A DNA stretch of 57,385 nucleotides from Nanobdellota archaeon (GTDB lineage Archaea; Nanobdellota; Nanobdellia; SCGC-AAA011-G17; GW2011-AR17): the NCBI GenBank assembly GCA_013329215.1, contig DUKS01000012.1, positions 1-57,385 of the forward strand, read 5' to 3'. Positions 886-49,330 of the stretch are shown in pieces. A program made the position numbers and the translations under genes. Under the pieces are notes generated by a model. That model saw only the letters and a program-made list of their open reading frames with translations, had not been told where the DNA came from and ran no database searches. Each line of letters opens with the position of its first letter. Position 1 is the first letter of the stretch.

Positions 886-2021
886 CCGGCTTCTTGTTTA
901 ACAGCATGTTTCTGCCTTGGATTAGGCACGCATTTTCTGCGCGCAGCTTCATACAATCCCTTAAAGGGCAATGGGCTAACATAAGCAAGCGGCTCTGCGC
1001 CTGAAAAAACCCTGTCAAAATCCCTTGCCCTGATACCCATGTTTTCTATTATTCCCCTGCATTCCCGGGCCGCCTTCTTTTCAATCAGCCTTATTGCTTC
1101 CCTTGTATATCCCCACTCATTGCCTATCTCTTCCAGTGTCATCCCATAATAAATCCTGCTGATAAGCACAAGCTTAGACTCTGCCCTATTAAGTTGCCTG
1201 ATTGCATCAAAAATAATGCCTGCTGCCTCAATATCGCCGCACTCCGCCTCGGGCATATGGCGCAAATCAGGAACGGTTTCAGCAAGCGTTGATTCTGTGC
1301 CGGGATTCGGGGGTGTGTCAAGGGAAAGCAGCGTTTTGACCTTGGAAGAGTCTATCGCCACAAACACCTGTTCTTCCAGCAGGCCTGTTGCAGCGCATAT
1401 CTGCCCCATGTGCATCCCAAAGTTGTCGTAATTTATCTCGGGGTTTTTGGCAAAAAACTTCTCTATCGCCTGCAGCTGCCTTTGCCTATTCAGGGGGATA
1501 ACGATCGTATGCCTCTTTTCAATCACCCCCCTTAGAATGTATGCCCTTACCCAGTGCCCTGCATAGGATACAAATTTAACATCGAACGTATAATCAAAAT
1601 CCTCAGCTGCCCTCGTAATGCCTGCGTTGCCATCCTGTATCCTGTCAAGAAGCGAAAGCCCCCTGTATTTTTTTGCAAAAGCAACAACAATCCTGAGGTT
1701 TGCAGTTATAAGCGAATCCTTTAATAGGCGCGCCGCTGTTTTTAAGCGCACAACTTCATCATAAAGCGATTTCAGCTCGTTGCCTTCCCTGCCAAGATAC
1801 GGCTTTCCTGAGGCAACAGCATGCTCAAGACCCGCGCTGAAGTTTTTTATCACAAGCCACCTTGTGCCGGGAACTGCATAGCCTGCTGACCTTATCAGAG
1901 CATCAAACTCATCGTTAATGGGATTAAGCTTCCTGCCTATTTCAGCCTCCTCTTCATGGCTTAAAACAGGATATTGTTCAATCTGCCTCCTGTACACCCT
2001 TTCAATTGCAGCCTCGTCCAT
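870..2021 (-). CDS. Bacterial-type RNA polymerase sigma-70 family factor (regions 1.2, 2, 3, 4 recognisable) with a ~65-aa C-terminal tail
   Basis: Region 1.2-like YRRQIEQYPVLSHEEEAEIGRKL. Region 2: LITANLRIVVAFAKKYRGLSLLDRIQDGNAGITRAAEDFD..KFVSYAGHWVRAYILRGV. Region 4.2 HTH: MTLEEIGNEWGYTREAIRLIEKKA. Confidence 0.85.
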   Translation of the reverse strand: MDEAAIERVYRRQIEQYPVLSHEEEAEIGRKLNPINDEFDALIRSAGYAVPGTRWLVIKNFSAGLEHAVASGKPYLGREGNELKSLYDEVVRLKTAARLLKDSLITANLRIVVAFAKKYRGLSLLDRIQDGNAGITRAAEDFDYTFDVKFVSYAGHWVRAYILRGVIEKRHTIVIPLNRQRQLQAIEKFFAKNPEINYDNFGMHMGQICAATGLLEEQVFVAIDSSKVKTLLSLDTPPNPGTESTLAETVPDLRHMPEAECGDIEAAGIIFDAIRQLNRAESKLVLISRIYYGMTLEEIGNEWGYTREAIRLIEKKAARECRGIIENMGIRARDFDRVFSGAEPLAYVSPLPFKGLYEAARRKCVPNPRQKHAVKQEAGHSGK

Positions 2022-22579: not shown

Positions 22580-25078
22580 ATGAAAAAAGCGCTTATCGCC
22601 ATGTTATGCCTTGCACTGCTTGTTTCTGCGGCATTTGCGCTTGAAGAAACCATAACAGGCAACATTGTAAAGCTGCCGTTATTGAAAAATCTTGTTGCAA
22701 AAAACAATGCAGCGCCTGCGGAGCAGCCGCCTTCTGAAGATGAGATGGAATTGAGAGAGGGCACATTCTCAGCAAACATAAAACGCACTGAAAGGTATTA
22801 TGGGAAGCAGGCATTCGTTGTTTCTGACAAAGACTGGCACAATGTTTTATCCCTGGTTCCTGTTTCACTTTGGTATGAGGGCGGGGAGCTGAAAAAATAC
22901 CCTGTATTGATTTACCACGAGGAAGACAACGGGTTTGACGCTGATTCTGCCATAACGTTCCTCAGGCAATATAATTCAAAGAAGGTTGTCCTTGTCGGCG
23001 ATACACCTGAAGAGCTTGACAATATACTGATAGCGGATGGCTACACTTATTTGCTTGAAGCGGATGTTGAGCCTGTCGCGCCTGAATTTGCTCCCCTGAC
23101 TGGAAGGCCGATAGCAAACATCCCGCCCCCAAGGAGAGATGAATTGATATCTCCTGTAAGAGGAATTGACCTAACTCCTGACTGGCTTACAAGAATCAGC
23201 CCTGATGATTACACAAGGTACTGGAGCAGATATAATACAGTTGTTGTTTGCGAAGATAATTACCAGTTGGGGCTGCTGGCTTCTGTTTACGCATCATACC
23301 TGAATGCACCTTTGTTTTTTGAAGGGAGAGTGCCTTCTGATGTGAGCCTTGCAAGGAAAAGAATTGTCACGGTTGGAAGAACAAGCTATACCGGAGCAGA
23401 AAGCTATAACCTTGCCCAGATTGAGCAAAAACTTGCAAGGGATTATCCAACAGACAAGATAATTCTTGTAAATTACAATGATTTGGCGATAAGGGAAACA
23501 AGGCCATTGTATATGCCATATACTACTATGCTAAATCGCGCAGAGATAGAAGAGCTGTATTCAAAAACATCCCTCTCGGCGCCGTTCCTTGCAGCCGGCA
23601 AGAATGAATTTATCATTACAACTGATAATACTGACAAAAATGGGGTGAAAGTGATAATGGAATGGAAAATCGCGAGGTACGGCCTTGACCCCAAATACCT
23701 GACAATAATGGCATCACCTCCGGCAATACAGATGGATGAGAACGTTGGGGCAAGGGAGGATTACACAGAAGTAGACAACCATATATACGGCGATATGAAT
23801 GTCATGGGGGTTGTTGACGGGCTGCAGGACCTCGCAGTCGGAAGAATCTTCAGCCTTACGCCCTCGGACGTTTCCTCATACGTTGCAAGGGACCTTTTCA
23901 TTGAATATTTTGGGCGGGACCGGGCTTTTGCTTCATTGTGGCCGGCTGCAATGATACCGAAGAAAGCGGACGGGAAGGCGACCGACAAGGCATTCAGGAA
24001 TGCAGGGTTTAGGCAGGAAAGCGTTTATACAGATGAAGGCACAACCGGAATTGAAGCTGAAAGAGACATGAACCATAAGTCGTATATCGCCTACCTTGCC
24101 CACGGCACCGTCCTGGGATGGGGCGGAGGGATACAGACAGACACGCTAAGAAGCTATAACATACATATGGACCCGGCAATCGTATTCAGCGTTGCATGCG
24201 ATACCTGCGCTTATTCTTTGGCCAATGCATATGCGAGCGGGTTGTTCTGCGCAAACATACTGAAGCATGGCGCAATCGCCCACATCGGAGCCGTGGACGG
24301 TGAAAGCGTCGAACTCAAGAGCAGCTCTATTATTGCCAATGAATTGTTAAATGGCAAGGATATAGGGCAGGCCATGCTCAGGTACAAGCAGATATTCGAG
24401 GCTTACGGGCATTTAAAGAAGGAAACCCAAAAAATAGCCTATCCCTCCGGAAGGGAAGAACTGCCTTATGAGCCGGTCTATGTACTGCTCGGCGACCCAA
24501 CAATCAGGCTTACAGAAAGCCCGTATGAAACAGATGAAGTTGCAATCACAGAAGAGGACGCAACATTCACAGACAAAATAATAAGAATACGCATAGAACA
24601 GGCAGATGATAACTTTATGATAACCTGCGACAGAGACGGAGGCGCAGAATGCAGCAGGGGAGAATTCACATTTTACGAAAACCCAGTGAGCAAAGCCTAT
24701 GTTGACGGCATAAGAAAGGTGGAAGATGAGCTGGACCCGGAATTTGTGCCTGTTTTTGGCGACATGATATACCTTGAAACAGATGGATTTACGGAGATAG
24801 CATCGCTAAAATTAAAAATAACATATGCAGACGGCAGAAGCGAGAGCCACAGCTTAACCAGGCATGGCGACTTATTTTACAAATGCTCCTCAACATGCCT
24901 CTCAAGCACAGAAGATTTGATTGCGCAGGTATACGACCTTAAGACAGGCGGCAACAGGCACAGGATTTTCCTGAATTTCAATAAAAGAGGCATTGGCGCA
25001 GACAAAATAATACCAGGGTACAGCTATGAGCTTGAGCTTAAAACTGAAACCGCCACCGGGACAAGGAGGTTTGACTAG
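22580..25078 (+). CDS. Large secreted protein: N-terminal cell-wall-binding-repeat-like region and a putative clan-CD (gingipain C25-like) cysteine peptidase core
   Basis: Signal peptide MKKALIAMLCLALLVSAAFA. Candidate His/Cys dyad contexts YLAHGTVLGWGG and VFSVACDTCAY. Weak, pattern-level. Confidence 0.35.
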   Translation: MKKALIAMLCLALLVSAAFALEETITGNIVKLPLLKNLVAKNNAAPAEQPPSEDEMELREGTFSANIKRTERYYGKQAFVVSDKDWHNVLSLVPVSLWYEGGELKKYPVLIYHEEDNGFDADSAITFLRQYNSKKVVLVGDTPEELDNILIADGYTYLLEADVEPVAPEFAPLTGRPIANIPPPRRDELISPVRGIDLTPDWLTRISPDDYTRYWSRYNTVVVCEDNYQLGLLASVYASYLNAPLFFEGRVPSDVSLARKRIVTVGRTSYTGAESYNLAQIEQKLARDYPTDKIILVNYNDLAIRETRPLYMPYTTMLNRAEIEELYSKTSLSAPFLAAGKNEFIITTDNTDKNGVKVIMEWKIARYGLDPKYLTIMASPPAIQMDENVGAREDYTEVDNHIYGDMNVMGVVDGLQDLAVGRIFSLTPSDVSSYVARDLFIEYFGRDRAFASLWPAAMIPKKADGKATDKAFRNAGFRQESVYTDEGTTGIEAERDMNHKSYIAYLAHGTVLGWGGGIQTDTLRSYNIHMDPAIVFSVACDTCAYSLANAYASGLFCANILKHGAIAHIGAVDGESVELKSSSIIANELLNGKDIGQAMLRYKQIFEAYGHLKKETQKIAYPSGREELPYEPVYVLLGDPTIRLTESPYETDEVAITEEDATFTDKIIRIRIEQADDNFMITCDRDGGAECSRGEFTFYENPVSKAYVDGIRKVEDELDPEFVPVFGDMIYLETDGFTEIASLKLKITYADGRSESHSLTRHGDLFYKCSSTCLSSTEDLIAQVYDLKTGGNRHRIFLNFNKRGIGADKIIPGYSYELELKTETATGTRRFD

Positions 25079-26270: not shown

Positions 26271-26416
26271 GCGGTAGCTACTGCCCACCAGCCACTACCT
26301 ACGTGCCATATGCCATCTCCACCACAGAAATCCTTTTATACCATTAGTCTTTTTGCTATATTCGAGGCAACGAAATTAACATTTCGAGCCTCACTTCGTA
26401 AATACTCGTGAGGCAA

Positions 26417-28717
26417 ATGGAAACTTTAATCTGGACTGAGAAATACCGCCCGAGGGACTTTAATGAAATAAAAGGCCAGGGCGACATAATAAAAACAATA
26501 CATGCAATGGTTGAAAAGCAGAATCTTCCCCATCTGCTGTTCTCAGGGCCTGCAGGCGTCGGGAAAACCACATTGTCATTAATAATCGCAAGAAAGCTCT
26601 TTGGAGAAAGCTGGAAGCAGAACTTTTTGGAATTAAACGCAAGCGTAGCCCCGGAAACCCCCATACTAATTAAAGAGCGAGGCAGGGTAAAGAGAACTAA
26701 TTTCGGAAAACTTGCTGAAGCCTGCTTTAAAGATAGCAATCCGAAATATGCATATCCGGAAAGCCTGGAAATTCTTTCAATTAATAAAGAACATAAGATT
26801 AAGTTTATGCCTGTAAAAAATATTTCAAGACATAAAGTCGGCAGAATAGCCAAGATTTCATATGAGGGAGGGTATATAAGAACCAGCTTGAATCATTCAG
26901 TAATTGTCTTGGACAAAGAGGGAAACCTGTCATCAAAGGAAGTTGCCTGCCTAAAAACAGGAGACCATTTGATAACTTTTAAAGATGCAGTGGATTCCGG
27001 CATGATGCGCATACCAGTGGATGAATTTGCGCCAAAAACGCATAATCAGTTAAGAAGCGGGCTAATAGAAAATCCCCGCGTAAAAACTATCATCGATTAC
27101 ATGGAAGTTGACAACAGCAATTCATGGCTAATGGGCTTATACCTTGCAGAGGGATGCACCAGTTTCAAAGGCAAAACAAGCGGACAAACGATTTTTACAG
27201 TCAGATACCCGCATGAGGAGCAAATCGCCCAAAAAGTCGCAGGCTTTGCCAAGGAAAAGTGGGGCATACCTTCTTACATCGTAAAAGGGAAATCAGGATT
27301 TAACCGGAATATTGAATCATCAATACAGGTAAGATTATTAAATACGCAATTAGCCAGATTCTTCAAAAATAATTTTTATGATGCAATGGGCATAAAGCGG
27401 GCGCCTTTCAAAAGGGTGCCTTGTTTTATGTTTGATGCCCCCTTAGAGTCAAAGTGGGCTTTTCTTCAGGGCTATATGGGCGATGCCTGCGGCGACTGGG
27501 AAAGTTATCTGAGATATAGCTCTGCCTCTCAGGAGAATTTAATAGATATAGCATGGCTTGGAAGGCTTTCTGGGTTGGACACATCTGTTTTTAACGAAGA
27601 AGCAAGGATAGTATGGAAACGGCCTTCTTTTTCGTATTTAAAAACAGAGCTTCTGCCTGCTGAATTGCTGATAGAATTGGCAAACAAGCTGGGCGAAAGA
27701 AAAGGGTTTAACGCCAAATACCTTCTTAGGCATCACCTTTATTGCAAAAAAGCAAAACGCATATCTAAAGATGCATTCCATAAAATCTTAACGCTTATTG
27801 AGTCAAAATCGTCTTTAGATGCGGGGGAGAGGGATATGCTTAAAAAATTTGGTAAGCTCATAGAGTCTCCCCTTTCAATTATTCAAATTAAGAAAATATC
27901 TATAGATGAAACATATCATGATTTCGTGTATGATGTCAGTGTGCCGGGCGCTGAAATGTTCTGGGGAGGCACAACACCCGTGCTTTTGCACAATAGTGAC
28001 GACCGCGGGATAGACGTCGTAAGGAACACAATAAAGGACTTTGCAAAGACAAGGGCAATAGGCAATTTCCCGTTCAAGATAATATATCTCGACGAATGCG
28101 ACAGCCTTACAAAAGAGGCGCAGCAGGCATTAAGAAGGACGATGGAGAATTTCGTGTCAGGCACTAGATTTATTTTAAGTTGCAACTATTCAAGCAAGAT
28201 AATTGATGCGATACAGAGCAGGTGCGCTGTTTTCAAGTTCAGGCCTTTGGAGGCAAACGAGCTTCTGCCTGTCATAAACGACATTGCGAAAAAAGAGTCG
28301 CTGGACATTGATGAGGCAGCGAAGAAAGCATTGTGCGAAATGGCCGACGGCGATGTGAGAAAAGTGGTCAACATACTCCAGAGCTGCGCTGCATTGACCA
28401 GCAAAGTGACTGAGAAGTCTGTTTACAGCATTGCGTCGCTTGCAGAGCCCAAGGAAATAGCTGATGTGCTTAACGCGGCTGTTAAAGGCGACTTTTCAAA
28501 CGCAAGGAGCATGCTGCTGGACACGCAGCTCAAATACGGGCTTTCCGGCATTGACATAATCAAGCAAATCCAAAAAGAAGTATGGAAGCTTAACATCCCT
28601 GACAAGGAAAAGCTGGGCATGATTGAAAAGTGCGGCGAGATTGAGTTCAGGATGGTTGAGGGGGCTGACGAGTTTGTGCAGCTGGAAGCGCTGATTGCAT
28701 CATTCATCCGCAGGTAA
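26417..28717 (+). CDS. rfcS: Replication factor C small subunit, interrupted by one intein
   Basis: WTEKYRP, Walker A GPAGVGKTT, ELNA|S...HN|SDDRGIDVVR, Walker B YLDECD, SRC motif QSRCAVFKF. The spliced product would be ~315 aa. Confidence 0.92.
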   Translation: METLIWTEKYRPRDFNEIKGQGDIIKTIHAMVEKQNLPHLLFSGPAGVGKTTLSLIIARKLFGESWKQNFLELNASVAPETPILIKERGRVKRTNFGKLAEACFKDSNPKYAYPESLEILSINKEHKIKFMPVKNISRHKVGRIAKISYEGGYIRTSLNHSVIVLDKEGNLSSKEVACLKTGDHLITFKDAVDSGMMRIPVDEFAPKTHNQLRSGLIENPRVKTIIDYMEVDNSNSWLMGLYLAEGCTSFKGKTSGQTIFTVRYPHEEQIAQKVAGFAKEKWGIPSYIVKGKSGFNRNIESSIQVRLLNTQLARFFKNNFYDAMGIKRAPFKRVPCFMFDAPLESKWAFLQGYMGDACGDWESYLRYSSASQENLIDIAWLGRLSGLDTSVFNEEARIVWKRPSFSYLKTELLPAELLIELANKLGERKGFNAKYLLRHHLYCKKAKRISKDAFHKILTLIESKSSLDAGERDMLKKFGKLIESPLSIIQIKKISIDETYHDFVYDVSVPGAEMFWGGTTPVLLHNSDDRGIDVVRNTIKDFAKTRAIGNFPFKIIYLDECDSLTKEAQQALRRTMENFVSGTRFILSCNYSSKIIDAIQSRCAVFKFRPLEANELLPVINDIAKKESLDIDEAAKKALCEMADGDVRKVVNILQSCAALTSKVTEKSVYSIASLAEPKEIADVLNAAVKGDFSNARSMLLDTQLKYGLSGIDIIKQIQKEVWKLNIPDKEKLGMIEKCGEIEFRMVEGADEFVQLEALIASFIRR
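26642..27994 (+). mobile_element. 451-aa intein with a LAGLIDADG homing-endonuclease domain inside rfcS
   Basis: Starts with Ser (SVAPETPILI, block A). Block B TSLNHSV. LAGLIDADG motifs WLMGLYLAEGCT and AFLQGYMGDACGD. Ends VLLHN followed by the +1 Ser of the extein SDDRGID. Confidence 0.85.
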
Positions 28718-38222: not shown

Positions 38223-38600
38223 ATGAAAGCGCTGGGCAAAAGAGGGGAAGCTGAAGAGCTGGAAACACTTACACTGTTTGATGTTGTGCTTGGGATTGTG
38301 GTTGCAACTTTTCTGGTAATTGCCGCGCTGTCGTTCAGCAGCATTTCATCATTCGGCAGGCTGTACCTTGAAAAAGACGTGTCTCTTCTCACAAGCGCGG
38401 TGCTGTCATCCCCCGGGCAGATTACGCTGAAATACCCTATAGGAGAAGATTACAGAGTGCAGATGTGCGAACCTGAAACCAATATATGCAATCATGTGAA
38501 AGTTGTGCATGACCCCACGCTTCTTGGCGTATTAAAGAAAGACAGGCTGGTATTCGGCTCAAGCCCTGCAACAGACCTTAGCCTGGAGAGGGAAGAATGA
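38223..38600 (+). CDS. Pilin-like protein (class III signal peptide)
   Basis: MKALGKRG|EAEELETLTLFDVVLGIVVATFLVIAALSF. TATA-like GATATATAAA ~28 nt upstream. Confidence 0.5.
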   Translation: MKALGKRGEAEELETLTLFDVVLGIVVATFLVIAALSFSSISSFGRLYLEKDVSLLTSAVLSSPGQITLKYPIGEDYRVQMCEPETNICNHVKVVHDPTLLGVLKKDRLVFGSSPATDLSLEREE

Positions 38601-39172
38601 GAATAGGCAAAAAGGCCAGCTATGACTTCAGCAGGAAGGCAATCTATTTTATAGTTGTCCTGTTTGTGCTTACGTTCATATTCCTTTACATGCACGGCGC
38701 CATTGTAAATTACAACAAGATTGCGGTGCAGAAAGAGGCTGCAATAGCAGGGGTTGTGCTTGCGCAGGAAGCGATAATGTCGCCCAAGTGCTTTGCATAC
38801 GTGGACGCGGCAACAGGCAGGGCTTATCCGGGCATGATAGACCTTGAAAAATTCAACAGCGAAGGCAAGCAGCGCTGCATGGAATACCTGAACATCCCTT
38901 ATAAAATAACGCTTTTGTCATTTGGGAACGTGCCCGAGCTGCAGTCTGACGGAAAAACAATAGCAAAAGGCAGCCAGGAAGAGCTTAAAGAAAAAGTTGT
39001 AAGAAGCGTGCTGATAATGAACAAAGGCCAGGTTACAAGAGGCTCAATGACATTTGAGCTTAATGACTATTTCATAGATGACAGCAAGAAAGAAAACTCA
39101 GAGCCTTATGAGGAAATATCAAGGCAGTCTGAGGAATTTTATGAGAATGTGGGGGCAACTGTGTCTATCTAA
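38597..39172 (+). CDS. N-terminally anchored hypothetical protein (pilin-like operon member)
   Basis: One N-terminal TM helix (AIYFIVVLFVLTFIFLY). ATGA overlap with the upstream gene. Confidence 0.45.
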   Translation: MRIGKKASYDFSRKAIYFIVVLFVLTFIFLYMHGAIVNYNKIAVQKEAAIAGVVLAQEAIMSPKCFAYVDAATGRAYPGMIDLEKFNSEGKQRCMEYLNIPYKITLLSFGNVPELQSDGKTIAKGSQEELKEKVVRSVLIMNKGQVTRGSMTFELNDYFIDDSKKENSEPYEEISRQSEEFYENVGATVSI

Positions 39173-39177
39173 GCAAA

Positions 39178-39756
39178 ATGAAAACGAACAGAAAAAAAGG
39201 GCAGACAGAGGATATATTCGCAGATCTTGTCATCGCGTTAATCCTGATTGTAGCGACAATAGCAATAATCGCTACAAAAGAGTATTTTCAGGGCAACAGC
39301 GTGCCTGTAAAAACACAAAAAGACGTAACAGGGCTCTATGGCACTGACATAGTGACATTGATGCGGACACCTGTGCCTGAATTTTACCTGCGCGATACAA
39401 TATGGCGTGAGTCTGAGGTAAAATTCGGAGAGATGCTGGCAATAATCGGCGAAGGGAACAAAGAAAAATACCCATGGGTATTCTCAAAGCAGATTGCGGG
39501 ATTTTCCCCAAACTACGGGTTTGTGGTGCAGGAAGGCGGCAAATGCACTGCAAGCTTTGAAGAGGCGCTTGGCATTTACATGCGCTTTTTATGGCAGGTT
39601 GCATTGTACAACGATAAAGGGGAGCAGGTATTCTGGTGCTCGCCAAAGGGCGTCAAGTTCACAAACGAGCGCGACCCTTACTGCCAGCTCATAAGGACAA
39701 AGCTGCCAACAGAGACAGGAAATACAATAACTGCTGAAATAGGGGTGTGCCCATGA
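39178..39756 (+). CDS. Pilin-like protein (class III signal peptide)
   Basis: MKTNRKKG|QTEDIFADLVIALILIVATIAIIA. Confidence 0.5.
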   Translation: MKTNRKKGQTEDIFADLVIALILIVATIAIIATKEYFQGNSVPVKTQKDVTGLYGTDIVTLMRTPVPEFYLRDTIWRESEVKFGEMLAIIGEGNKEKYPWVFSKQIAGFSPNYGFVVQEGGKCTASFEEALGIYMRFLWQVALYNDKGEQVFWCSPKGVKFTNERDPYCQLIRTKLPTETGNTITAEIGVCP

Positions 39757-41141
39757 ACAGAAAAGCGGTTGCTGTGCTTGCTATATCCGCAATCGGGTTC
39801 CTTGTGGCGATTATATTATTCTATAACAAGGCCATCAACCTTGTCCCGGGCCCGCCTGCCGAATACCTCGGCGAAACCCAGGTCAAGGTGTATGGAGCAT
39901 ACATTGAGGGGGAAAGGCAGCTGCTTTACATTGACATGGCTGCAGAATATGCATTTGACGCTGCAGGCGGGGCTGAAAAGCTAAGCGCAGCGAATGACGG
40001 ATTCCTGGTAAGGTTCGGGCTTGAATTCTCAGGATACCTGGACAAGTTTAACAGCATGTTTAACGCAGGCTTAAACATTTCAAATTACACATTTTATGCT
40101 GACAATACGGGAATATGGGGGGTCTGCAACAAGGACCTGAACCTGACAACAGAGCTTTACGATTATAAGTTCAGGCCTAACTTCAGGGTTGCTGCAAAGA
40201 ACAGGCTGCCGCAGGAAGTGCAGCAGCACTATGAAGAGCAGGCTCAGGAAGCTCCTGCAGAGGAGCCTGTGCAGGAAGTGCCGGCAGAGGAAGAAACGCC
40301 AGTAGAGCTTGTTTCCGGCAATGTAAAATTCGTTGTAATGAGCGATATCCACACATTCCCGGAGGGTGGCCGGGCTTTAAGGATAGCGGCCGCAGATGCT
40401 GTAAAAGCATTAAACCCGGACCTGGTGGTTATGACCGGCGACATTGTGTCAGGCGACCCGGATACAACACTTGAATCAAGAGTAACAGCAATGTGGAGCC
40501 TGTTTGACACTGAAACAAGAAGCAGGCTGGGCAGCATACCTATTGCAGCCCTCGGCGGGAACCATGACATGTATACATCCCAACTATTGGAGGGATACAC
40601 AAATTACTGGAATGAACATCGGCCCGCCCTTGATGTAACAGGCAATTACCCGCTTTATTATTCATTTGACTTCAACAATGTGCATTTTGTCATGCTTAAG
40701 AGCAACAGGGCGCGTATGGAAGAGTCGCAGCTCGAATGGCTCGCAGATGACCTCGGCAATGCAAAATCCGAAGGCAAGGCTTCATTGGTGTTTTCCCATT
40801 ACGCCCTTGCCGCCATGAAACTAAACGACCCGGATGTGCTGCAGCCAAATGCAAGGCTTAAGGACATCTTAAAGCAGAACAATATTATAGCATTCATACA
40901 TGGCGACACGCATGTCTTTTTCAGGGGACTGACAGACGGGATTAATGTAATAAATCTAGCGTCTGTTGCCGGCGTAAAAAGAAAGCTGGCCGGCGCAGAA
41001 ACGAACACGCCGCGTATGATAATGGTCGGGGAAATAAGCAACGGGCAATTAAGCACTTATGAGCTCATAGAGCCGGATTATCTCACGCAAAGGTTTGACG
41101 AAAGCGTGATTGCGGGCATAAGGCCACCAGGCTTTAGCTAG
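39753..41141 (+). CDS. Membrane-anchored extracytoplasmic calcineurin-like metallophosphoesterase
   Basis: N-terminal TM helix. Motifs VVMSDIH, MTGDIVSGD, GGNHD, FSHYAL, IHGDTH. ATGA overlap with the upstream gene. Confidence 0.7.
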   Translation: MNRKAVAVLAISAIGFLVAIILFYNKAINLVPGPPAEYLGETQVKVYGAYIEGERQLLYIDMAAEYAFDAAGGAEKLSAANDGFLVRFGLEFSGYLDKFNSMFNAGLNISNYTFYADNTGIWGVCNKDLNLTTELYDYKFRPNFRVAAKNRLPQEVQQHYEEQAQEAPAEEPVQEVPAEEETPVELVSGNVKFVVMSDIHTFPEGGRALRIAAADAVKALNPDLVVMTGDIVSGDPDTTLESRVTAMWSLFDTETRSRLGSIPIAALGGNHDMYTSQLLEGYTNYWNEHRPALDVTGNYPLYYSFDFNNVHFVMLKSNRARMEESQLEWLADDLGNAKSEGKASLVFSHYALAAMKLNDPDVLQPNARLKDILKQNNIIAFIHGDTHVFFRGLTDGINVINLASVAGVKRKLAGAETNTPRMIMVGEISNGQLSTYELIEPDYLTQRFDESVIAGIRPPGFS

Positions 41142-42348
41142 CCGCCCTTCTTTTGATTTTCCTTGCAACGCCAAAAACAGGGAACCCTATTGTCAGCGCA
41201 GCCAGAATGTCTGACAAAGGCCTGCCAAGCCCGAGCATTGCATATAGGCCCCTTACAATGGAATAGCCTGAAGCGAGATACTCTCCGATAATGTCAATTA
41301 ACCCGCCATTTACCTTATCTATCTGCTGCCCGCTCTTTTTCTCCAGGGCCTGCTTTTCAATATCATCCGCCTTTGCAAGTATCTCTGCCCTATCATTAAA
41401 GTAATCAGCATCTGCAAGGCCTGTTTCAATCCTGCTGCAGATATCCTCCGCAGTTCCGTAATGCCCCAATGAGATTTCTGCTTCCGCCTGTGTAATTAAG
41501 ACGGAATATTCCTGCCCCATATCTTCCTGAAGCCTCTCACTAAAGGAGTCCGTCATTTCAATCATGCGCGAAGAATAATACTTGTGCCCGCCCCTTAACT
41601 TAAAAGCAAGCCTTTGGCCGCATGCGTGTGCCTCACCATATTTTTCAGACAAGAGGTATGTTTCGCATTCGGCTAATTCATCCAGTGCTTCACAGTAAGA
41701 AGAATTCTGCGATGCATTCCAGTCTGTATAAGCATGTATCCCTGTGCATACAGCTGTGCCCAGCAGACCGGCAGCAGCAAGCCCGAGAAGCGGGTATTTC
41801 AGGCGCGCCATTGCTGGATTAAACCCACCCCCGCCTTCTCTATCGCTTCTTCCCGCGCCATGCTGCGCCCTGTACCTTGATGAAAAGTCGTTTGCAATGT
41901 CTTCTATCGGCTTTGAACTGTCTATGGTGTATCCTGCTTTGCCTGCCAATGCATCCGCAAACAATATAGCTTTCAGCTGCTGGATATTCCTTGCTTTCAG
42001 CACAAGCGATTTCGAGCCTCTTGCTTCAAGCTCGCGGATGTAAACAGCAGCCGCCATTTTGTCCGCTGCATCAGGATCGCCTGCGCTAATGCCTGAAGAA
42101 GATATCGCAACCGGTGTTTCACAACAGGCATAAAGCAGACCTCCCCCCAAATCATGCCGGCTGCAGCCTGCGTAATCCGCGCATATAACCTCTTTCACGC
42201 TATAAGCGCCAACCATTCTGCCGAGCACGCCGCGGTCCATTGACCCGACAAAATAATCCAGCAGCAGCTGCTTGTCAAGGCTCAACCCCGTGTTTTTTGG
42301 CCTGCGTTTTCCTGCGATTATCTGTGCCGCACAGTCAACATCCCGCAT
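41134..42348 (-). CDS. Hypothetical membrane protein: ~200-aa cytoplasmic N-domain, a TM helix, ~150-aa outside domain and a C-terminal hydrophobic segment. Last gene of the E1/JAB operon.
   Basis: ATG 42348 overlaps the AsnC-like gene stop by 14 nt. TM YPLLGLAAAGLLGTAVCTGIHAY. The longer track ORF (to 42492) overlaps the regulator gene. Confidence 0.5.
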   Translation of the reverse strand: MRDVDCAAQIIAGKRRPKNTGLSLDKQLLLDYFVGSMDRGVLGRMVGAYSVKEVICADYAGCSRHDLGGGLLYACCETPVAISSSGISAGDPDAADKMAAAVYIRELEARGSKSLVLKARNIQQLKAILFADALAGKAGYTIDSSKPIEDIANDFSSRYRAQHGAGRSDREGGGGFNPAMARLKYPLLGLAAAGLLGTAVCTGIHAYTDWNASQNSSYCEALDELAECETYLLSEKYGEAHACGQRLAFKLRGGHKYYSSRMIEMTDSFSERLQEDMGQEYSVLITQAEAEISLGHYGTAEDICSRIETGLADADYFNDRAEILAKADDIEKQALEKKSGQQIDKVNGGLIDIIGEYLASGYSIVRGLYAMLGLGRPLSDILAALTIGFPVFGVARKIKRRAAS

Positions 42349-42760
42349 CTTCCTGCTTAACCTCCTCAACAATAAAATGCGTACGTTTTGAACTGCAAAG
42401 CCTTGCAGCCTGCTCCTCAAATTCATAATATGCTCCCATATTGCGGAATATCGCCGTTGCCATGACAGCAAACCTGCCTGAAGACACTGCAAGCGAGTTG
42501 GTGTTCCGGCTCTTTTTTAAAAATGACAAAAGCCTCCTGCTTTTCGGGTGGAACAGCATGAGCGCGTGCACTTCAAAACCGAGCGCCTTAAAATCAGGGA
42601 GAGTTGTGTATTTCAGCATCTTAGCCTCCGCGCGCTTAAGCGCCCTCATTGCAGTTTGCCTTGACATGCCCAGCTTGCTTGCAATCCCGGACAGCCTCTG
42701 CCTGGGGTCACGCCTAAGCTCCCTTACTACCTCATTCTCATAACCGTTCAATTGCACCAC
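42335..42760 (-). CDS. Lrp/AsnC-type HTH regulator inside the E1/JAB operon
   Basis: HTH RLSGIASKLGMSRQTAMRALKRAEA followed by a RAM-like beta-alpha-beta (FEVHALMLF..). Apparent GTG start overlapping the E1-like gene by 23 nt. Confidence 0.6.
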   Translation of the reverse strand: MVQLNGYENEVVRELRRDPRQRLSGIASKLGMSRQTAMRALKRAEAKMLKYTTLPDFKALGFEVHALMLFHPKSRRLLSFLKKSRNTNSLAVSSGRFAVMATAIFRNMGAYYEFEEQAARLCSSKRTHFIVEEVKQEDAGC

Positions 42761-44081
42761 CCTGTTTATGGCATTTGCAGCCTCTGATTATATTGCATGC
42801 GCACTGCCTTTCGGCAGGCAGGTAAGACACTTTTTCTGTAAGCTGTTTTTTTGAGAAATACAGCATCTGCCTCCCGGAACTTTCAAGCCCGGTTAAAGAA
42901 GCACCCAGCTCGGCCGCCATCATCGCGCCCGCAAACGCATTGCACATAACAATGTTCGATTCCTGCATTGTATTGCAGGCCTGCGGCTGCGTGCTTGCCT
43001 GTTCAACATTTCCTCTTCTGCATTCCAGGCAAATGTTGTGATTGTATATGTCAAGCCTTGCCGTAAAAGGGCCAACGCCGGCATCGATTAAAACAATGTT
43101 GTTTGCAACAGCATACCTGCTCAAAAGCTCCCTTGCGCCCCAATTGTCAACGCACGAGAGCACAGCAGAATATTTTTTGCCTGCAGTTTTTGCTTCATTC
43201 TCATCAAAAAACCTGCCGAACGCGCGCATATTCGCTCCAAGCAGGCTTTCGAGCCTTTGCTTAAGCACAGCAGCCTTATTCCTGCCTATTGCATCATAGT
43301 ACAGCACCTGCCTGTTTAGGTTTGTCGCATCAATATCATCGCCGTCATAAACATCAAAAGGAATCCTGAGGCAGGCAAGGTTCAAAGCAGCGTACGTGCC
43401 TATCCCGCCTGCGCCAACAACAAGCACCCGCCCGCTTTTCAGCCTGGGAAACGAAACAGCCTTTTCTGCCCTTACAGAATCCGCTATTGACATTTTTCTG
43501 AAAAACCTGCCTTTCGCAAAAAGATTATAGTTTAAAACTCCGGAAACAGCCTCATCCCCTTCAAGCCCAAGAAGCGCTTTTCTTATTTCGTCCAGTGCAA
43601 TTGCAGCGATTAAGCCTGACGAAAACGAGCCCTGCTCTTTTCCATTATACCTGCGCATGGCTGCTGTTTCCAGGCAAGCATGGCCTTTTTCCCCACTGTA
43701 GCCTGCATATATTGATGCGGAAATATCATCGCTCGAAGCGCTTACAAAAAGCCTTGCCTTCCCTGCATATTCACATGCAGCTTGTTTTGAGGCTTCATTG
43801 TTTGTGAAATCAGCAACAACATCAGCAGGCCCTATGCTTCCGGCGTTTGCGGCAGTATTCAGGCGTATTTCCGGGTTTATTTCACTAATGAGTCTTTCAA
43901 GCGGTTTTTTAAACAAGTGCCGCTGCCTATGATTTTGCTGCACCAGTGTTATGTTTCCTATCCCCAGGCCAGCCATGTACAGCAATGCGTAATCACTTAC
44001 CATTGAATCCCCCACCAGCACAACACGGCTGTTTCTAAGTATAGCCTGGTCAAAAACAGATGACTGCCTTGTATAGTCCAT
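42738..44081 (-). CDS. E1-like (ThiF/MoeB/UBA superfamily) enzyme with tandem domains: degenerate N-terminal and intact C-terminal adenylation domain
   Basis: C-terminal half: RVLVVGAGGIGTYAALNLA, DGDDIDATNLNRQ, SCVDNWGAR, CLEC ... CACNIIRGCKC. N-terminal half: same fold pattern but GDSMVS replaces GxGxxG, and LVQQNHRQRHLF replaces DxDxxxxSNLxRQ. Confidence 0.8.
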   Translation of the reverse strand: MDYTRQSSVFDQAILRNSRVVLVGDSMVSDYALLYMAGLGIGNITLVQQNHRQRHLFKKPLERLISEINPEIRLNTAANAGSIGPADVVADFTNNEASKQAACEYAGKARLFVSASSDDISASIYAGYSGEKGHACLETAAMRRYNGKEQGSFSSGLIAAIALDEIRKALLGLEGDEAVSGVLNYNLFAKGRFFRKMSIADSVRAEKAVSFPRLKSGRVLVVGAGGIGTYAALNLACLRIPFDVYDGDDIDATNLNRQVLYYDAIGRNKAAVLKQRLESLLGANMRAFGRFFDENEAKTAGKKYSAVLSCVDNWGARELLSRYAVANNIVLIDAGVGPFTARLDIYNHNICLECRRGNVEQASTQPQACNTMQESNIVMCNAFAGAMMAAELGASLTGLESSGRQMLYFSKKQLTEKVSYLPAERQCACNIIRGCKCHKQGGAIERL

Positions 44082-44082
44082 A

Positions 44083-45081
44083 TTAGTTCACATTTGTAAC
44101 CCTGCTAATGCCCGGGGCTCCTGTTATTCTCTGTCTCTCAAACCGGCTGTCTGTGAGGAAAGCATACGGCTTTGCATTGCTCCTGTATTCCTCTGTGAGC
44201 ACAGCCCTTGCCTTTTCCATCAATGCCTCAAGCTGCAGCTTCGGATTGTCAGGATGCAGCCTTTTTATTGAGCCATAATCATACCTGCCTGTGCATATGC
44301 ACTGCAATGGCTTTCCGGCAGCAGGAAGCGAAGGGTGGCTGTAAGGGTTAAGCACATAGAGCTTGCCAAAGTCAACCGAATCCGCGTTCATGAATACAGG
44401 GGCGCCCACTTCTGCCTCTCCAAAGCTGTAGTAAGCGCCGTTCTTTCTCTCATAAAGGATGTAAGGCTGTATTTTTGTGAAAACATAGAAGCGACTGTCC
44501 ATTATCCTAAAGCCCACCTGCTTTTCATTGTCATAAAAAATCCCTTCTGCAATGCTGTCCAAAGCCATACGCAGGGGGCTGCCTGCCGCGCGTTTCCTTA
44601 TTTTTTTCTTATAATCCGCTTCAATATCACTTACTGCTGCTATGTGCGACAAGCCAAGATTAAAATTTCTTCCTCTAACAAAAATATCCCCCCGGCTGGA
44701 TTCAAAAAGCGGATACACCATAGAATTAAGAAAAAGCAGTTCCTTCTTTGGCAGGACATGCTCTGCTATCGCACCGCCGCCCACAGCGCCCGAAAGCTGC
44801 GTGATAACAAGCAGCGCAGGCTGCAAATGCGGGCTTTGTGTTCCGGATTCTGCCTTTGTCCTTATTGCGGAAAGCAGGCCCGAATGCATCCCTGATTTTG
44901 CCAGATAATCCTGCTCAAGCATCGGGATTGTTGTTTTTTGCACAAGCCCGATTCTGCATCCGAAAAAGTCCATATACGCGCCCCCATAGCCATTGCATGC
45001 CTGATAAACAGCAGGATAGACAATAACGCACGGGCCTTCTGAAAAATACCTGAAGAATGTGTCAGGAACAGGCATGCCCAT
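44083..45081 (-). CDS. Hypothetical protein; the C-terminal ~140 aa is a candidate E2 (UBC-like) domain
   Basis: YVLNPYSHPSLPAAGKPLQCICTGRY resembles the E2 HPN-loop-Cys signature. It is preceded by beta-strand-like segments (FYVFTKI, YILYERKNG, YYSFGEAEV) and followed by a helix. Inference only. Confidence 0.3.
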   Translation of the reverse strand: MGMPVPDTFFRYFSEGPCVIVYPAVYQACNGYGGAYMDFFGCRIGLVQKTTIPMLEQDYLAKSGMHSGLLSAIRTKAESGTQSPHLQPALLVITQLSGAVGGGAIAEHVLPKKELLFLNSMVYPLFESSRGDIFVRGRNFNLGLSHIAAVSDIEADYKKKIRKRAAGSPLRMALDSIAEGIFYDNEKQVGFRIMDSRFYVFTKIQPYILYERKNGAYYSFGEAEVGAPVFMNADSVDFGKLYVLNPYSHPSLPAAGKPLQCICTGRYDYGSIKRLHPDNPKLQLEALMEKARAVLTEEYRSNAKPYAFLTDSRFERQRITGAPGISRVTNVN

Positions 45082-46465
45082 CACCCGGATTAAGTGTTTT
45101 CATATTCTCTGCAAGCTGTTTTGATTTTCCAATGCACCTGCCCGCATACTCTCCTGTGCTGATTATGCCTAATGCCTCATTCACAGCATCCTTGTGTATT
45201 TGCTCCAACACCCCCGATTCCTCCAGCCTTGCAATGCATTCTTCAACCTTGTCCAGCCTTTTTTCATAGTCTGCTGCGTTCCCGTCAAACACACCGGACA
45301 ATGCGGCAAACATGTCCACTACAGCCTTGTCAGCATCCATATGATTTCTGTGGCCATGCCTGTAAAAGTCAACTGAACCGAGGAAAAGCTGCACATACAA
45401 AAGGTGCAGTTCCCTTGCGCCATTAAAGTATTCATTGTTTGACTTGTAAGGTGCCTGGGAAACAATTGCTTCCTGCTTTTCCCCCGGATTTAATATGCCT
45501 TCAAGCCGTTTTTTGGCAGGTAGCCTGCTGCAGGCAGGAATATGCCTTGCTGTTTCTTCCTGCGAAATGGATTCAACAGACTTTATGCGCGACGCAAAGC
45601 GCAATGCAGATTCCCGGTCTCCAAGATTAATCCTGAAAATGCCATGGCTGCTTTTGAGCTCAACGCTGTTATCCCTTGCTATTGCTTCAAATGCAGGCCT
45701 CTCCCTCTCCGCCATTGCAAGCGGCTGCGCAAACTGCAGCTTTCTTTTGAATAGCTCTGTGTCTTTCAGCCTGGCGGCATGCTCTCTTTGATTGTCAAGC
45801 GAGAAAGAATATTTTTCCCCAATCTCCGCAAGATGCTCCTGCGGCAGGCAAACATTCGGCATTGAGCAGGCTGCCAGCCCAAGCCCGGCTTTTGTGTGCT
45901 TCAATTCCCCGCCCTTAATGCTGAACAGCTCTGCAAGATATTTGCCATTGCCTTTCGTATAAGCCCCTGCATTTATCACTATGCTTAAGAACGAAGAAGG
46001 CAGAACCTCTTCAACTGATTTTATGCAGTATTCGGTTCCCGCCTCAAGCATTATGCGCCTGCCCTGCATTGTCTGCGCATTAAACAGGTCCAGGCACGGG
46101 CCGCCTGCATTAAAATCCCAGCGCCCGGCCTTTTCATTATGCTTTTTCATTGCAGCAAGCTTTGACTTTATATGTTCGTGGTCTGTATGCGAATGAAAAA
46201 GCCCGTGCACGCCGTGGCTGTGCCACATGCCAACAAGGTGTGCGCCTGCCTTGTATAGGTCCATGCACGGGAACTCTGATGCAGAAGCCCTTGATATTGA
46301 GCCGTACTGCTCGGGAAAAAAGAAGCCCGTAATCCTGCCGCTGCCTTTTTCTGAATAGAGATACCCCATGCATTCTATATCTTTTCCAGCAAAGCCTGAG
46401 ATTTCCCTTGCATAAAGGCACATTTCGGCGAATACAGCCGCTTCCAGATTCACGTATTCTTTCAT
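45062..46465 (-). CDS. JAB/MPN (JAMM) metalloprotease with a ~370-aa C-terminal extension of unknown function
   Basis: Upstream Glu in KDIECMGYLY and a complete HSH-x7-S-x2-D (WHSHGVHGLFHSHTD, nt 46181-46222). ATG 46465 forms an ATGA overlap with the upstream stop. Confidence 0.8.
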   Translation of the reverse strand: MKEYVNLEAAVFAEMCLYAREISGFAGKDIECMGYLYSEKGSGRITGFFFPEQYGSISRASASEFPCMDLYKAGAHLVGMWHSHGVHGLFHSHTDHEHIKSKLAAMKKHNEKAGRWDFNAGGPCLDLFNAQTMQGRRIMLEAGTEYCIKSVEEVLPSSFLSIVINAGAYTKGNGKYLAELFSIKGGELKHTKAGLGLAACSMPNVCLPQEHLAEIGEKYSFSLDNQREHAARLKDTELFKRKLQFAQPLAMAERERPAFEAIARDNSVELKSSHGIFRINLGDRESALRFASRIKSVESISQEETARHIPACSRLPAKKRLEGILNPGEKQEAIVSQAPYKSNNEYFNGARELHLLYVQLFLGSVDFYRHGHRNHMDADKAVVDMFAALSGVFDGNAADYEKRLDKVEECIARLEESGVLEQIHKDAVNEALGIISTGEYAGRCIGKSKQLAENMKTLNPGDGHACS

Positions 46466-46887
46466 CTGCACCCTACATCATCGTAGCGCTTTACAGCCAT
46501 GTCAAGGCAGTCATAAGCTATGCCGTCAGCTGTATGCCGCTGGTCAATATAGCCCGCAACCCTGTCATCAAGGCGTATGATTTCTGTTTCAGCGCCTATG
46601 CGCTTTTTTTTGGTGTTGTCTGCATTATACACGCGCACTTCGCAAAATGTGTTTGCGCCGTTGTGCGCTGCAAGGTATTCTTTTATTTCAGGAGCGGCCC
46701 CTTCCTGGCTGTTGCCTGCAATTTCTTCAATGACTTCCCTGAACGTGGCTTTTCTCAGCCTGTCATCAAGCTCTGCATAAACAGCCCTTGACTCGTAATC
46801 AGCTTTTTCAGCTGCGTCTTTCGCGCCCGCCGCCTTTTGCCTGTTCACTTCTGTGTTCACTATGCCCACAAGTTTGTTCTCACCCAT
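46462..46887 (-). CDS. Hypothetical protein, first gene of the E1/JAB operon
   Basis: 141 aa from ATG 46887, with AGGAG 9 nt upstream; alternatives are ATG 46896 and TTG 46917. No recognised motif. C-terminus is ..KRYDDVGCR. Confidence 0.45.
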   Translation of the reverse strand: MGENKLVGIVNTEVNRQKAAGAKDAAEKADYESRAVYAELDDRLRKATFREVIEEIAGNSQEGAAPEIKEYLAAHNGANTFCEVRVYNADNTKKKRIGAETEIIRLDDRVAGYIDQRHTADGIAYDCLDMAVKRYDDVGCR

Positions 46888-46931
46888 CTTTTTCATCTCC
46901 TGAGCCGAAGCCCGCAATTACCCTGTATTCG

Positions 46932-47999: not shown

Positions 48000-48578
48000 T
48001 TACGACAGCTTCAGCGTCCTCTGCTCTGTGAAAATGACATTCTTGTTTTTTAAGAAAGCAACAATCCTTGCCTCGCTTTCTGCAGGCACCAAAATGGAGC
48101 CCCTTCCCGCAACTTTCCCTTTTATTTCCGCAAGCAGGCCCTCGCCTTTTTTTCTCCCGTATAATGCGTATGAAAACATCACTTTCTCAGAAGCGGTCTT
48201 ACCTGCAAGCAAATAGGTTATAAGAAAGTAAGGCGCAACGCCGAGAAGCTCTTTTATTGATTTATTATGCCTTACGCTGAATCCCTCGTGAAGCACTGAA
48301 AGAAGCACTGGCTGAAACAGCTCCTCTGCAAACATCGGCTCTGTATGAAGGCTGATGCCTAACGAATCTGCCGCCTTTTTTGCCGTGTATAAAATGTTTT
48401 CCGCAGCCCTGTAATTCTTTTCCCTGAAAAAGCCGATTACATCTATGTCATTAGGATGCTCCTTTCCTTTCACTGCAGAGCCGAATATGAAAATGTCAGC
48501 AAGCAGCTTTTCTTTTTTTAGCAAGCTCTGCAATTCGTTTAAAAGCTTCTTCCTCTGTTGGGATGTCAATTGCTCCAT
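48000..48578 (-). CDS. Minimal nucleotidyltransferase (MNT)-domain protein
   Basis: FIFGSAVKGKEHPNDIDVIGF (GS..D.D motif). Confidence 0.65.
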   Translation of the reverse strand: MEQLTSQQRKKLLNELQSLLKKEKLLADIFIFGSAVKGKEHPNDIDVIGFFREKNYRAAENILYTAKKAADSLGISLHTEPMFAEELFQPVLLSVLHEGFSVRHNKSIKELLGVAPYFLITYLLAGKTASEKVMFSYALYGRKKGEGLLAEIKGKVAGRGSILVPAESEARIVAFLKNKNVIFTEQRTLKLS

Positions 48579-48894
48579 TTTTAAAAGCCTCCGTTACCTT
48601 TTCCCTTACTATTTCAAGCTCTTCCCTTGAAAGCTCCCTTGTATAAGTTCTCCTGTAAGTGCTGAACAGCCTGTCTGTAATGTCGTAAAGCGCAGGAATA
48701 TGCGCCTTAAGCATTTCAAACCGCTCATTGTGATCATTTGGAGCATGCTTCAGCTTTTCCTGCAGCGCCAGGTCATCAACTGCAAAAAGCGCCTTGAAAT
48801 AGTTTGAGCCTGACTCTGCGCGCATCCCCATCTTTTCCGCCAATAATGCAATGAGGAAATAGTTCCTTGCCTTTTCTTTAAGCACTTCAGCCAT
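48496..48894 (-). CDS. Helical HEPN-like partner of the MNT protein
   Basis: All-helical 132 aa. Candidate R-x6-H (RFEMLKAH). 83-nt overlap with the MNT gene. Assignment is tentative. Confidence 0.4.
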   Translation of the reverse strand: MAEVLKEKARNYFLIALLAEKMGMRAESGSNYFKALFAVDDLALQEKLKHAPNDHNERFEMLKAHIPALYDITDRLFSTYRRTYTRELSREELEIVREKVTEAFKNGAIDIPTEEEAFKRIAELAKKRKAAC

Positions 48895-49058: not shown

Positions 49059-49330
49059 TGCGGCGGAAGCCCGGAATTGTCTCATACTTTAACAATGGTT
49101 AATCCCTCGCTTTCCTCGGCCCTGCTAACCCGCAAGCGTTATCACAGTTGGTTAAGGCTGCTCCATTCCTGGCCTGACCTGATTCCCGAAAGCAACGACC
49201 CTGCAGGACAAGGTGTCAACGTACGGCAAGGGACCAAGGCCAAAGCATGACCCGCTCCCAGGCGATAGCCCCTTCATAGGTTCGTTTAAGGTGATAGGGT
49301 AGAACCAACACCCCGGCATATCCACCGCAT
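49059..49330 (-). ncRNA. ffs: Signal recognition particle RNA (archaeal 7S-type), ends approximate
   Basis: Minus-sense CAGGTCAGGCCAGGAATGGAGCAGCC (nt 49156-49181) matches the universal helix-8 motif with a GGAA tetraloop. The 5' GCGGTGGA pairs with the 3' TTCCGCCGC. TATA box lies ~25 nt upstream. Confidence 0.8.

Follow-up and report, generated by a model that had tools for sequence, protein, structure and literature searches.

A conserved four-gene archaeal cassette and its candidate E2-position protein with a His-Pro…Cys motif

Introduction

The 57,385-nt stretch of contig DUKS01000012.1 from a Nanobdellota archaeon (GCA_013329215.1), the whole of which was analysed and is referred to here as the window, carries a gene of no recognised family between those of a JAB/JAMM metallopeptidase and of an enzyme resembling ubiquitin-activating enzymes (E1). 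Its product, protein X, raises the question of whether it takes the place of a ubiquitin-conjugating enzyme (E2) in a pathway that modifies other molecules with a ubiquitin-like protein (Ubl). With moderate confidence, we read X as the E2-position component, namely an E2-like thioester carrier combined with a target selector, of a conserved four-gene archaeal Ubl cassette, the fourth member of which is a small protein (SM) that typically ends in glycine followed by a short tail.

Prokaryotic Ubl systems such as type II CBASS, Bil, and Bub have recently changed views on the origin of ubiquitination. To our knowledge, all of them have recognisable E2s of the ubiquitin-conjugating (UBC) type. The cassette described here keeps the E1 and the JAMM enzyme, and its E2 and Ubl positions are held by families unknown to profile libraries or solved structures. 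Should X work as a thioester carrier, either the UBC superfamily would stretch far past its known limits or E2 chemistry would have evolved twice. A literature search in a limited collection returned no description of an archaeal or DPANN system of this kind. The unannotated X family, comprising at least 144 clusters, and the partner modifier family are now open to annotation.

Protein X and its conserved motif

Protein X is encoded on the minus strand at 44083–45084 by an open reading frame (ORF) of 333 aa starting with GTG, alternative lengths being 332 aa from an ATG at 45081 and 330 aa in public data (P0001). Nucleotides 44293–44337 of the same strand translate as HPSLPAAGKPLQCIC, residues 250–264 in the 333-aa numbering, and hold the motif H250-P251-S252…C262-I263-C264, with the H250 codon at 44335–44337 and the C264 codon at 44293–44295. 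The initial annotation of this DNA had read H-P-S…C-I-C in exactly these nucleotides, as translation bears out; its residue numbers, 250–264, are right for the 333-aa GTG form and wrong for the 332-aa form that it named. It had also placed the gene between JAB and E1 genes, which is confirmed, and had seen no recognisable motif in the N-terminal 190 residues or so, in agreement with the finding that Pfam matches nowhere in X, these residues included. The pattern HP[NS]-x(6-14)-C occurs a single time in the six-frame translation of the whole window (approximately 115,000 residues).

Conservation and the predicted model delimit a C-terminal domain of X at residues 181–333 (44086–44544, minus strand), which contains G191, a beta-meander, Y248-x-H-P, Q261-x-I-C-x-G266, a helix at 281–297, Y300, L310, and V-T-N331. 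It is preceded by an N-terminal domain of approximately residues 1–100, with a PxTFF motif found family-wide, and by a middle domain of approximately residues 105–180.

An exhaustive HMMER search with a two-sequence profile recovered 144 representative homologous clusters at E ≤ 1e-3, and the protein is thus not the orphan it had been taken for. The count falls to 73 at E ≤ 1e-10 and to 20 at E ≤ 1e-30. Word-indexed searching was far less productive: X alone gave two matches and only one homologue, at 39% identity, while a 57-sequence alignment gave three matches. Scans of genome and metagenome contigs added only seven further loci, because the conserved words are short. No relatives were detected in a scan of viral contigs, nor among 50,697 phage records when X and P0057 served as tblastn queries. 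X itself had no match in Pfam, NCBIfam, PADLOC, or PHROG; across 142 family members, Pfam, NCBIfam, and PHROG returned noise and nothing credible, and sequence searches of the PDB with X alone and with the family profile yielded zero matches. One marginal candidate, P0142 (E 6.1e-4, in six short stretches), was set aside as a probably spurious member of the family, and its Skp1_POZ match, of which zero stretches passed on their own, was likewise taken as spurious.

Family members range from 250 to 680 aa, share approximately 20–40% overall identity, and are best conserved over the C-terminal 150 residues or so, the PxTFF motif and the middle region being common to distant members too. Of the 144 representatives, 140 retain H250, 143 retain P251, and 139 retain C264, two more having Ser at this last position; other strongly kept residues are F221 and Y248 (137 each), G191 (135), Y300 (130), G266 (121), and I263 (114). 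Position 252 is occupied by F (57), A (44), S (20), or G (8), and C262 is variable. Hence, of the HP[NS]…Cys motif first noticed in X, the His, the Pro, and the second Cys are features of the family, S252 and C262 are not, and the signature becomes Y-x-H-P-x-[LVI]…Q-x-I-C-x-G, with a spacing from H to C of 14 in X and 9–27 in the family. On this conservation, C264 rather than C262 is proposed as the candidate catalytic or thioester residue.

A second motif, [VI]-[TS]-N or C-L-N-[DE]-[FY], lies near the C-terminus of most members (44086–44100 in the window). Its Asn, N331 in X, is invariant wherever the position could be aligned (70/70), and might supply the Asn that is absent from the HP motif. 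A reading of V-T-N as a processed or adenylated C-terminus, comparable to the Asn of MccA, was rejected because tails of 0–15 residues follow it and the element is confidently modelled.

Linkage of X with the E1, JAB, and SM genes

Local hidden Markov models for X, E1, JAB, and SM were run over all ORFs of 22 loci plus the window, which together represent 14 independent X loci (the window, the L002 group, L007, L008, L009, L010, L011/12, L013, L015, L016, L017, L018/19, L020, and L021/22). The E1 gene adjoins X or lies one gene off in 14/14 of these, and JAB and SM genes are present at every X locus with sufficient flank. Three gene orders were seen, SM-JAB-X-E1, SM-X-E1-JAB, and SM-X-JAB-E1, so that linkage of the cassette survives rearrangement; it also holds down to 20–26% identity of X. 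In the window, the start of X overlaps the end of the JAB gene by 23 nt, and X ends two bases before the E1 gene.

The host is archaeal, an archaeal signal recognition particle (SRP) RNA being present in the window at 49060–49328, and the relatives, archaeal or metagenomic, include one Nanoarchaeota metagenome-assembled genome and another labelled 'archaeon'. Synteny with the archaeal SRP RNA is common to L013 and the window. That the locus is syntenic among close relatives speaks against a mobile island; toxin-antitoxin-like and reverse-transcriptase elements, however, occur near it in the window and in L001.

At L007 (1870–2424 and 10277–11557), a second SM paralogue without a C-terminal Gly (ending ICVFD) was observed, together with a second X paralogue of 426 aa lying downstream of the core operon by a few genes. 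On the 261-kb contig L001 (4810–6140 and 8702–12205), the region upstream of the operon holds an RT-16 RNA and an RVT_1 reverse transcriptase, and the JAB and E1 genes are each found in two ORFs (266 + 175 aa and 105 + 288 aa), which points to frameshifts or assembly errors.

The E1-like enzyme, the JAMM peptidase, and the small protein

The E1-like enzyme (447 aa; 42738–44081, minus strand) matches Pfam ThiF in two stretches (E 3.6e-38). When aligned with hhalign, its N-terminal and C-terminal halves match each other with a probability of 98.2% (E 4.7e-14), and the protein is accordingly an internal duplication, a pseudo-dimer of an inactive and an active half in a single chain, as BilD and the eukaryotic E1s are (PMC10557695). 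In the inactive adenylation half (approximately residues 1–200), GDSMVS replaces GxGxxG and NLNRQ is lacking, while the active half (213–431) keeps GAGGIG, D246, D248, N254, R257, Q258, K269, and D312. The zinc tetrad C351xxC354 plus C435xC437 is conserved in 11/11 E1 sequences. Cys369 of the crossover loop (nt 42975–42977), placed in a short loop 15 residues after the CxxC, is conserved in 10/11 and shifted in the eleventh.

The PDB relatives of the enzyme are ThiF, SUMO E1, and Cap2, from which its active half is equidistant by sequence, and it matches the PADLOC Cap2 'E1-E2' models (up to 9.7e-15) via the adenylation domain only. Prokaryotic E2 sequences were also sought through plasmid relatives of the E1, and only a MoaD/ThiS-YcaO cluster turned up, in which the only plasmid relative inspected adjoins the MoaD/ThiS gene.

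The JAB/JAMM metallopeptidase (469 aa; 45062–46471, minus strand) scores 24.6 bits against Prok-JAB, for a cutoff of 25. Its catalytic domain spans approximately residues 1–170 and is followed by an extension of about 300 aa without matches. The JAMM motif E…HxH-x7-S-x2-D is intact in the window, and E…HSHG-x6-HS-x2-D is conserved in 9/9 aligned orthologues.

SM (46462–46917, minus strand) is 151 aa long from a TTG, the true start possibly being an internal ATG, and ends in …YDDVG-CR. The gene lies immediately upstream at all loci with enough flank. Its orthologues span 133–180 aa, and the ending [V/G]G followed by 0–15 residues is seen in 10 of 12, as in DDVG-CR, DDVG-TR, TAVG-KC, SGVG-RY, and DEGG-RKYRTLDTLFK, with one stopping exactly at the Gly of SPGVG. 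The same ending pattern is seen in the precursor of BilA, the tail of which is processed by BilC (PMC10557695). SM is thus a candidate precursor of a ubiquitin-like modifier, with a putative beta-grasp fold.

Predicted structure of X and comparison with UBC

With the 57-sequence alignment, AlphaFold2 produced a model of X with a predicted local distance difference test score (pLDDT) of 91.8 and a predicted template modelling score (pTM) of 0.73, as against a useless model (pLDDT 40) with a two-sequence alignment. The model comprises an N-terminal domain of a sheet plus helices (1–100), a middle part of four strands and two helices (115–180), and a C-terminal domain in which seven short strands (182–239) lead to the HP turn, Cys264, a short helix (271–276), and a long helix (281–297). 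The local order of elements resembles that of UBC, namely beta4, HPN, Cys, 3-10 helix, and alpha2. The strands before the motif and the helix after it that the initial annotation suggested are present in the model, but the strands number seven rather than the four that had been counted.

The correspondence was also examined at the level of profiles, by aligning the C-terminal X profile with nine eukaryotic UBC sequences in hhalign. One local alignment of 42 columns was obtained (P 0.008), exactly in the predicted register, which equates H250-P251 with H75-P76 and I263-C264 with I84-C85 of UBE2D2, C85 being the catalytic Cys, and the helix 281–297 with alpha2. When the columns of the UBC alignment were shuffled 200 times, the scores had a median of 11.8 and a 95th percentile of 15.8, and only 1/200 reached the real score of 21.2; a reversed control gave P 0.36. 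The empirical P of the register is therefore approximately 0.005–0.01, which suggests, with modest significance, that the active-site segment of X is E2-like.

Several results weigh against the proposed E2-like role of X and the Ubl nature of its partner. The hhalign probability of the X–UBC alignment is only 2–5%. No equivalent of the HPN Asn exists in the 144-member family, and the sheet of the model has seven strands versus four in UBC. Foldseek, queried with the whole three-domain model against 350,542 PDB chains, among which are many E2, Cap2, and BilB structures, gave a best match at E 0.31 with a TM-score of about 0.1, and no E2 appeared among the top 50 matches. UQ_con, Prok-E2_A-E, UEV, RWD, and UFC1 had no match at E ≤ 0.001 in the 142 members searched with Pfam. 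SM, for its part, shows no similarity to Pfam, the PDB, or Ub, ThiS, and MoaD profiles.

PADLOC E2 models had no match in X, and a Foldseek search of BFVD returned nothing better than borderline matches to uncharacterised viral proteins (E ~2e-3, TM-score <0.3). A UEV match in P0084 (E 0.0059; 16.9 bits for a cutoff of 27) was judged to be noise because it set YPYKHPFV against the YP..PP loop, in a register other than that of the HP/Cys alignment. As far as the search with the whole three-domain model goes, the suggestion that X mimics the UBC core did not survive the fold test by which it was to be judged, the confident model having no significant PDB match; nor did the profile searches disclose any meaningful match to UQ_con, Prok-E2, UEV, or RWD families among the 142 members, and neither the Asn/Ser of HP[NS] nor C262 is conserved. 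In the predicted model, the fold of X as a whole is not recognisable as UBC, and X is no more than a possible member of the UBC superfamily. The C-terminal domain may be either a UBC domain that has diverged extremely or a separate fold in which an HP…Cys site arose by convergence.

Proposed mechanism and alternative explanations

From the genes, motifs, conservation, and co-occurrence observed, we infer a series of chemical steps, and a biological role, for the cassette. The JAMM peptidase would trim the tail of 0–15 residues from SM and expose its C-terminal Gly, which the single-chain E1 would adenylate before taking SM onto Cys369 of the crossover loop as a thioester. SM would then pass by transthiolation to Cys264 of X, a residue that lies in the conserved C-terminal domain, after the Y-x-H-P turn and before the long helix, while the more variable N-terminal and middle domains would choose the target. 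No E3 ligase is encoded, as in Bil systems, and the JAMM enzyme may also reverse the conjugation. The biological role could be defence or regulation. The guess in the initial annotation that X occupies the E2 position thus draws support from the near-invariant H, P, and C, from the linkage, and from the hhalign register, whereas the part of it that concerned the UBC fold does not.

A bolder version of this proposal sees in the X family a Ubl-conjugating enzyme whose fold has no relation to UBC, a convergent HP…Cys 'E2' with in-built target recognition that would work with an equally unrecognisable Ubl in small-genome archaea. If so, a thioester-carrier E2 would for the first time be known from outside the UBC superfamily. 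This version is regarded as possible but doubtful.

Different functions for X were weighed against the role of thioester carrier. An unlikely alternative gives X the role of a hydrolase or transferase with H250 and C264 as its catalytic Cys/His dyad, as in a second deconjugase, a maturation protease, or a ligase of the transglutaminase type. The near-invariant His and Cys, 9–27 residues apart, could indeed form a dyad, the fold is not recognisably UBC, and BubE, a previously unrecognised extra protease in Bub operons, offers a precedent (PMC11601596). Such an operon, however, would have no E2 though its E1 keeps a conserved loop Cys, and it already has an intact JAMM peptidase; moreover, no protease, transglutaminase, or L,D-transpeptidase structure was matched by the X model in Foldseek, and the local profile match of X is to the UBC active-site segment. 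Little credence is given to a non-catalytic role for X, whether as substrate, adaptor, or regulatory subunit of the E1, in which H, P, and C would be structural. The lack of an assigned fold in Foldseek is compatible with such a role, as is the example of type II CBASS, where the E1/JAB pair handles a substrate CD-NTase and not a Ubl (PMC10097602). Nevertheless, active sites typically show what is seen here, a lone Cys and His that are near-invariant at 20–40% overall identity within Y-x-H-P…Q-x-I-C-x-G. A distinct small protein with a Gly end always accompanies X, which itself has no conserved Gly/Ala end, its V-T-N being followed by tails of 0–15 residues.

Sulfur-carrier systems (QbsCDE, CysO/Mec) bear the same signature of a small protein ending in Gly and about two further residues, together with a JAMM peptidase and a loop-Cys enzyme resembling ThiF. 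In a pathway of the QbsC/D/E or CysO-Mec type, SM would be a thiocarboxylate carrier, the JAMM enzyme would remove its tail, the E1 would only adenylate, and X would either bear a persulfide on Cys264 or be a biosynthetic partner. We hold this to be improbable as well. E. coli ThiF and SUMO E1 are equally close to the active half of the E1, and the plasmid relative inspected adjoins a MoaD/ThiS gene; on the other hand, SM ends in VG, not GG, without a match to ThiS/MoaD profiles, no conserved rhodanese, cysteine desulfurase, or biosynthetic gene was found at the examined loci, target recognition accounts better for the variability of the N-terminal regions of X and for the paralogue expansion at L007, and the fused pseudo-dimer is known from conjugating E1s (PMC10557695), not from the homodimeric MoeB or ThiF. 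As for HP…C being a chance motif in a non-functional or mis-called ORF, patterns this short can arise randomly, but the idea is refuted by 144 homologous clusters, near-invariant residues, and a confident model, as well as disfavoured by the single occurrence of the pattern in the six-frame translation, and its probability is negligible.

Comparison with known systems

Among described systems, the cassette read here as one for Ubl conjugation would work like Bil but is not a member of the Bil family, because the protein in the E2 position does not match a BilB-type UBC E2 and the E1 has no CYS domain; the candidate in the Ubl position has the [V/G]G-plus-tail ending in 10/12 orthologues and no sequence similarity to Ubls. 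Each comprises four genes, encoding a small modifier, SM being the candidate here, with a Gly end and a tail that can be removed, a protein in the E2 position, a JAMM enzyme, and a single-chain E1 (PMC10557695; PMC11601596). In both, the E1 has the BilD-type arrangement of an inactive and an active half, with a zinc site formed by two Cys of the crossover loop and two C-terminal Cys (PMC10557695), the JAB/JAMM enzyme has an intact active site, and no E3 is encoded. BilB, however, has a recognisable UBC fold of approximately 150 aa, with a C-alpha root-mean-square deviation of about 3.2 Å to UBE2D2 and a His after the Cys (CEHH; PMC10557695; PMC11601596), whereas X, from a family of 250–680 aa, consists of three domains, places His-Pro ahead of the Cys, and matches UBC in neither Foldseek nor Pfam. 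BilD carries a helical CYS insertion of approximately 75 aa, the corresponding cysteines being C343 and C417 (PMC10557695), whereas the E1 described here has a short loop Cys and lacks this mobile insertion. SM, unlike the Bil modifier, has no detectable beta-grasp signature, and the host is archaeal.

With type II CBASS and Bub, the cassette shares the general feature of a prokaryotic E1-like and JAB system conjugating a protein C-terminus, a function that is proposed for the cassette, and yet it is neither of them. In type II CBASS, a UBC-like E2 is joined to the E1 in Cap2, the target being a CD-NTase, and no CD-NTase is encoded here. Bub systems (6E/DUF6527) employ Ser/oxyester chemistry and include a DUF6527 protease (PMC11601596), whereas both the E1 and X of this cassette keep their Cys and no DUF6527 protein is present. 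Nor is it an operon of the Caldiarchaeum type: the Ub operons of Caldiarchaeum subterraneum are also archaeal, with an E1 and a modifier precursor processed by a JAMM/Rpn11-like peptidase, but ubiquitin, a UBC E2, and a RING E3 can all be recognised in them and none of the three here (PMC5654768; PMC6043591).

Relative to canonical UBC domains (UQ_con), X presents the same local succession of a strand, an aromatic residue, H-P, any residue, an aliphatic residue, a loop, aliphatic-Cys, a short helix, and a long helix, but it differs in the missing Asn of HPN, in the distance from H to C (14, with 9–27 in the family, versus 10 in UBE2D2), and in having seven strands instead of four. The QbsCDE and CysO/Mec systems share with the cassette a small protein with a Gly end and about two residues beyond it, a JAMM enzyme, and a ThiF-like adenylating enzyme. 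From ThiS/MoaD sulfur-carrier systems it is set apart by its fused E1, the lack of a rhodanese or biosynthetic neighbour, and the additional conserved Cys protein, X.

Accessory genes and other features of the window

Two further genes follow the E1 gene on the minus strand and are accessory, being confined to the close subclade. One encodes an AsnC/MarR-type winged-helix protein of 141 aa (42335–42760; HTH_24, 4.7e-5), AsnC-type helix-turn-helix orthologues of which occur after the E1 in the L002 group, L013, and L008 and not in distant loci. The other encodes a membrane-anchored protein of up to 452 aa (41134–42492) with no Pfam match, of which residues 228–449 are conserved; an N-terminal extension of approximately 227 aa is absent from its 244-aa orthologues, and, as the listed TTG start overlaps the helix-turn-helix gene by 158 nt, the true start is uncertain.

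Adjacent to these genes, on the plus strand, 38223–39756 and 39747–41141 encode three small proteins with N-terminal hydrophobic segments (e.g. KGQTEDIFADLVIALILIV), followed by a Metallophos protein. The small proteins look pilin- or archaellin-like on inspection of their sequences only. Homologues of the pilin-like and Metallophos genes adjoin the operon in L002 and L009 too. Between the operon and the SRP RNA, at 48000–48894 on the minus strand, the genes for a 192-aa nucleotidyltransferase (NTP_transf_2/Polbeta/DUF6932) and for a 132-aa product without matches overlap, and the pair may be a toxin-antitoxin system of the MNT/HEPN type.

Elsewhere in the window, a replication factor C (RFC) small-subunit gene at 26408–28717 (plus strand) contains an intein, with Intein_splicing at residues 122–529 between AAA and Rep_fac_C, and an 832-aa protein encoded at 22580–25078 (plus strand) matches Peptidase_C25 (gingipain-like; E 3.2e-13). 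At 870–2021 (minus strand), a 383-aa protein has Sigma70_r2 and Sigma70_r4 matches (E ~1e-7 to 1e-8). Such a sigma factor of bacterial type is unusual on this contig, the rest of which is archaeal by its SRP RNA and RFC, and could reflect horizontal transfer or a chimeric assembly.

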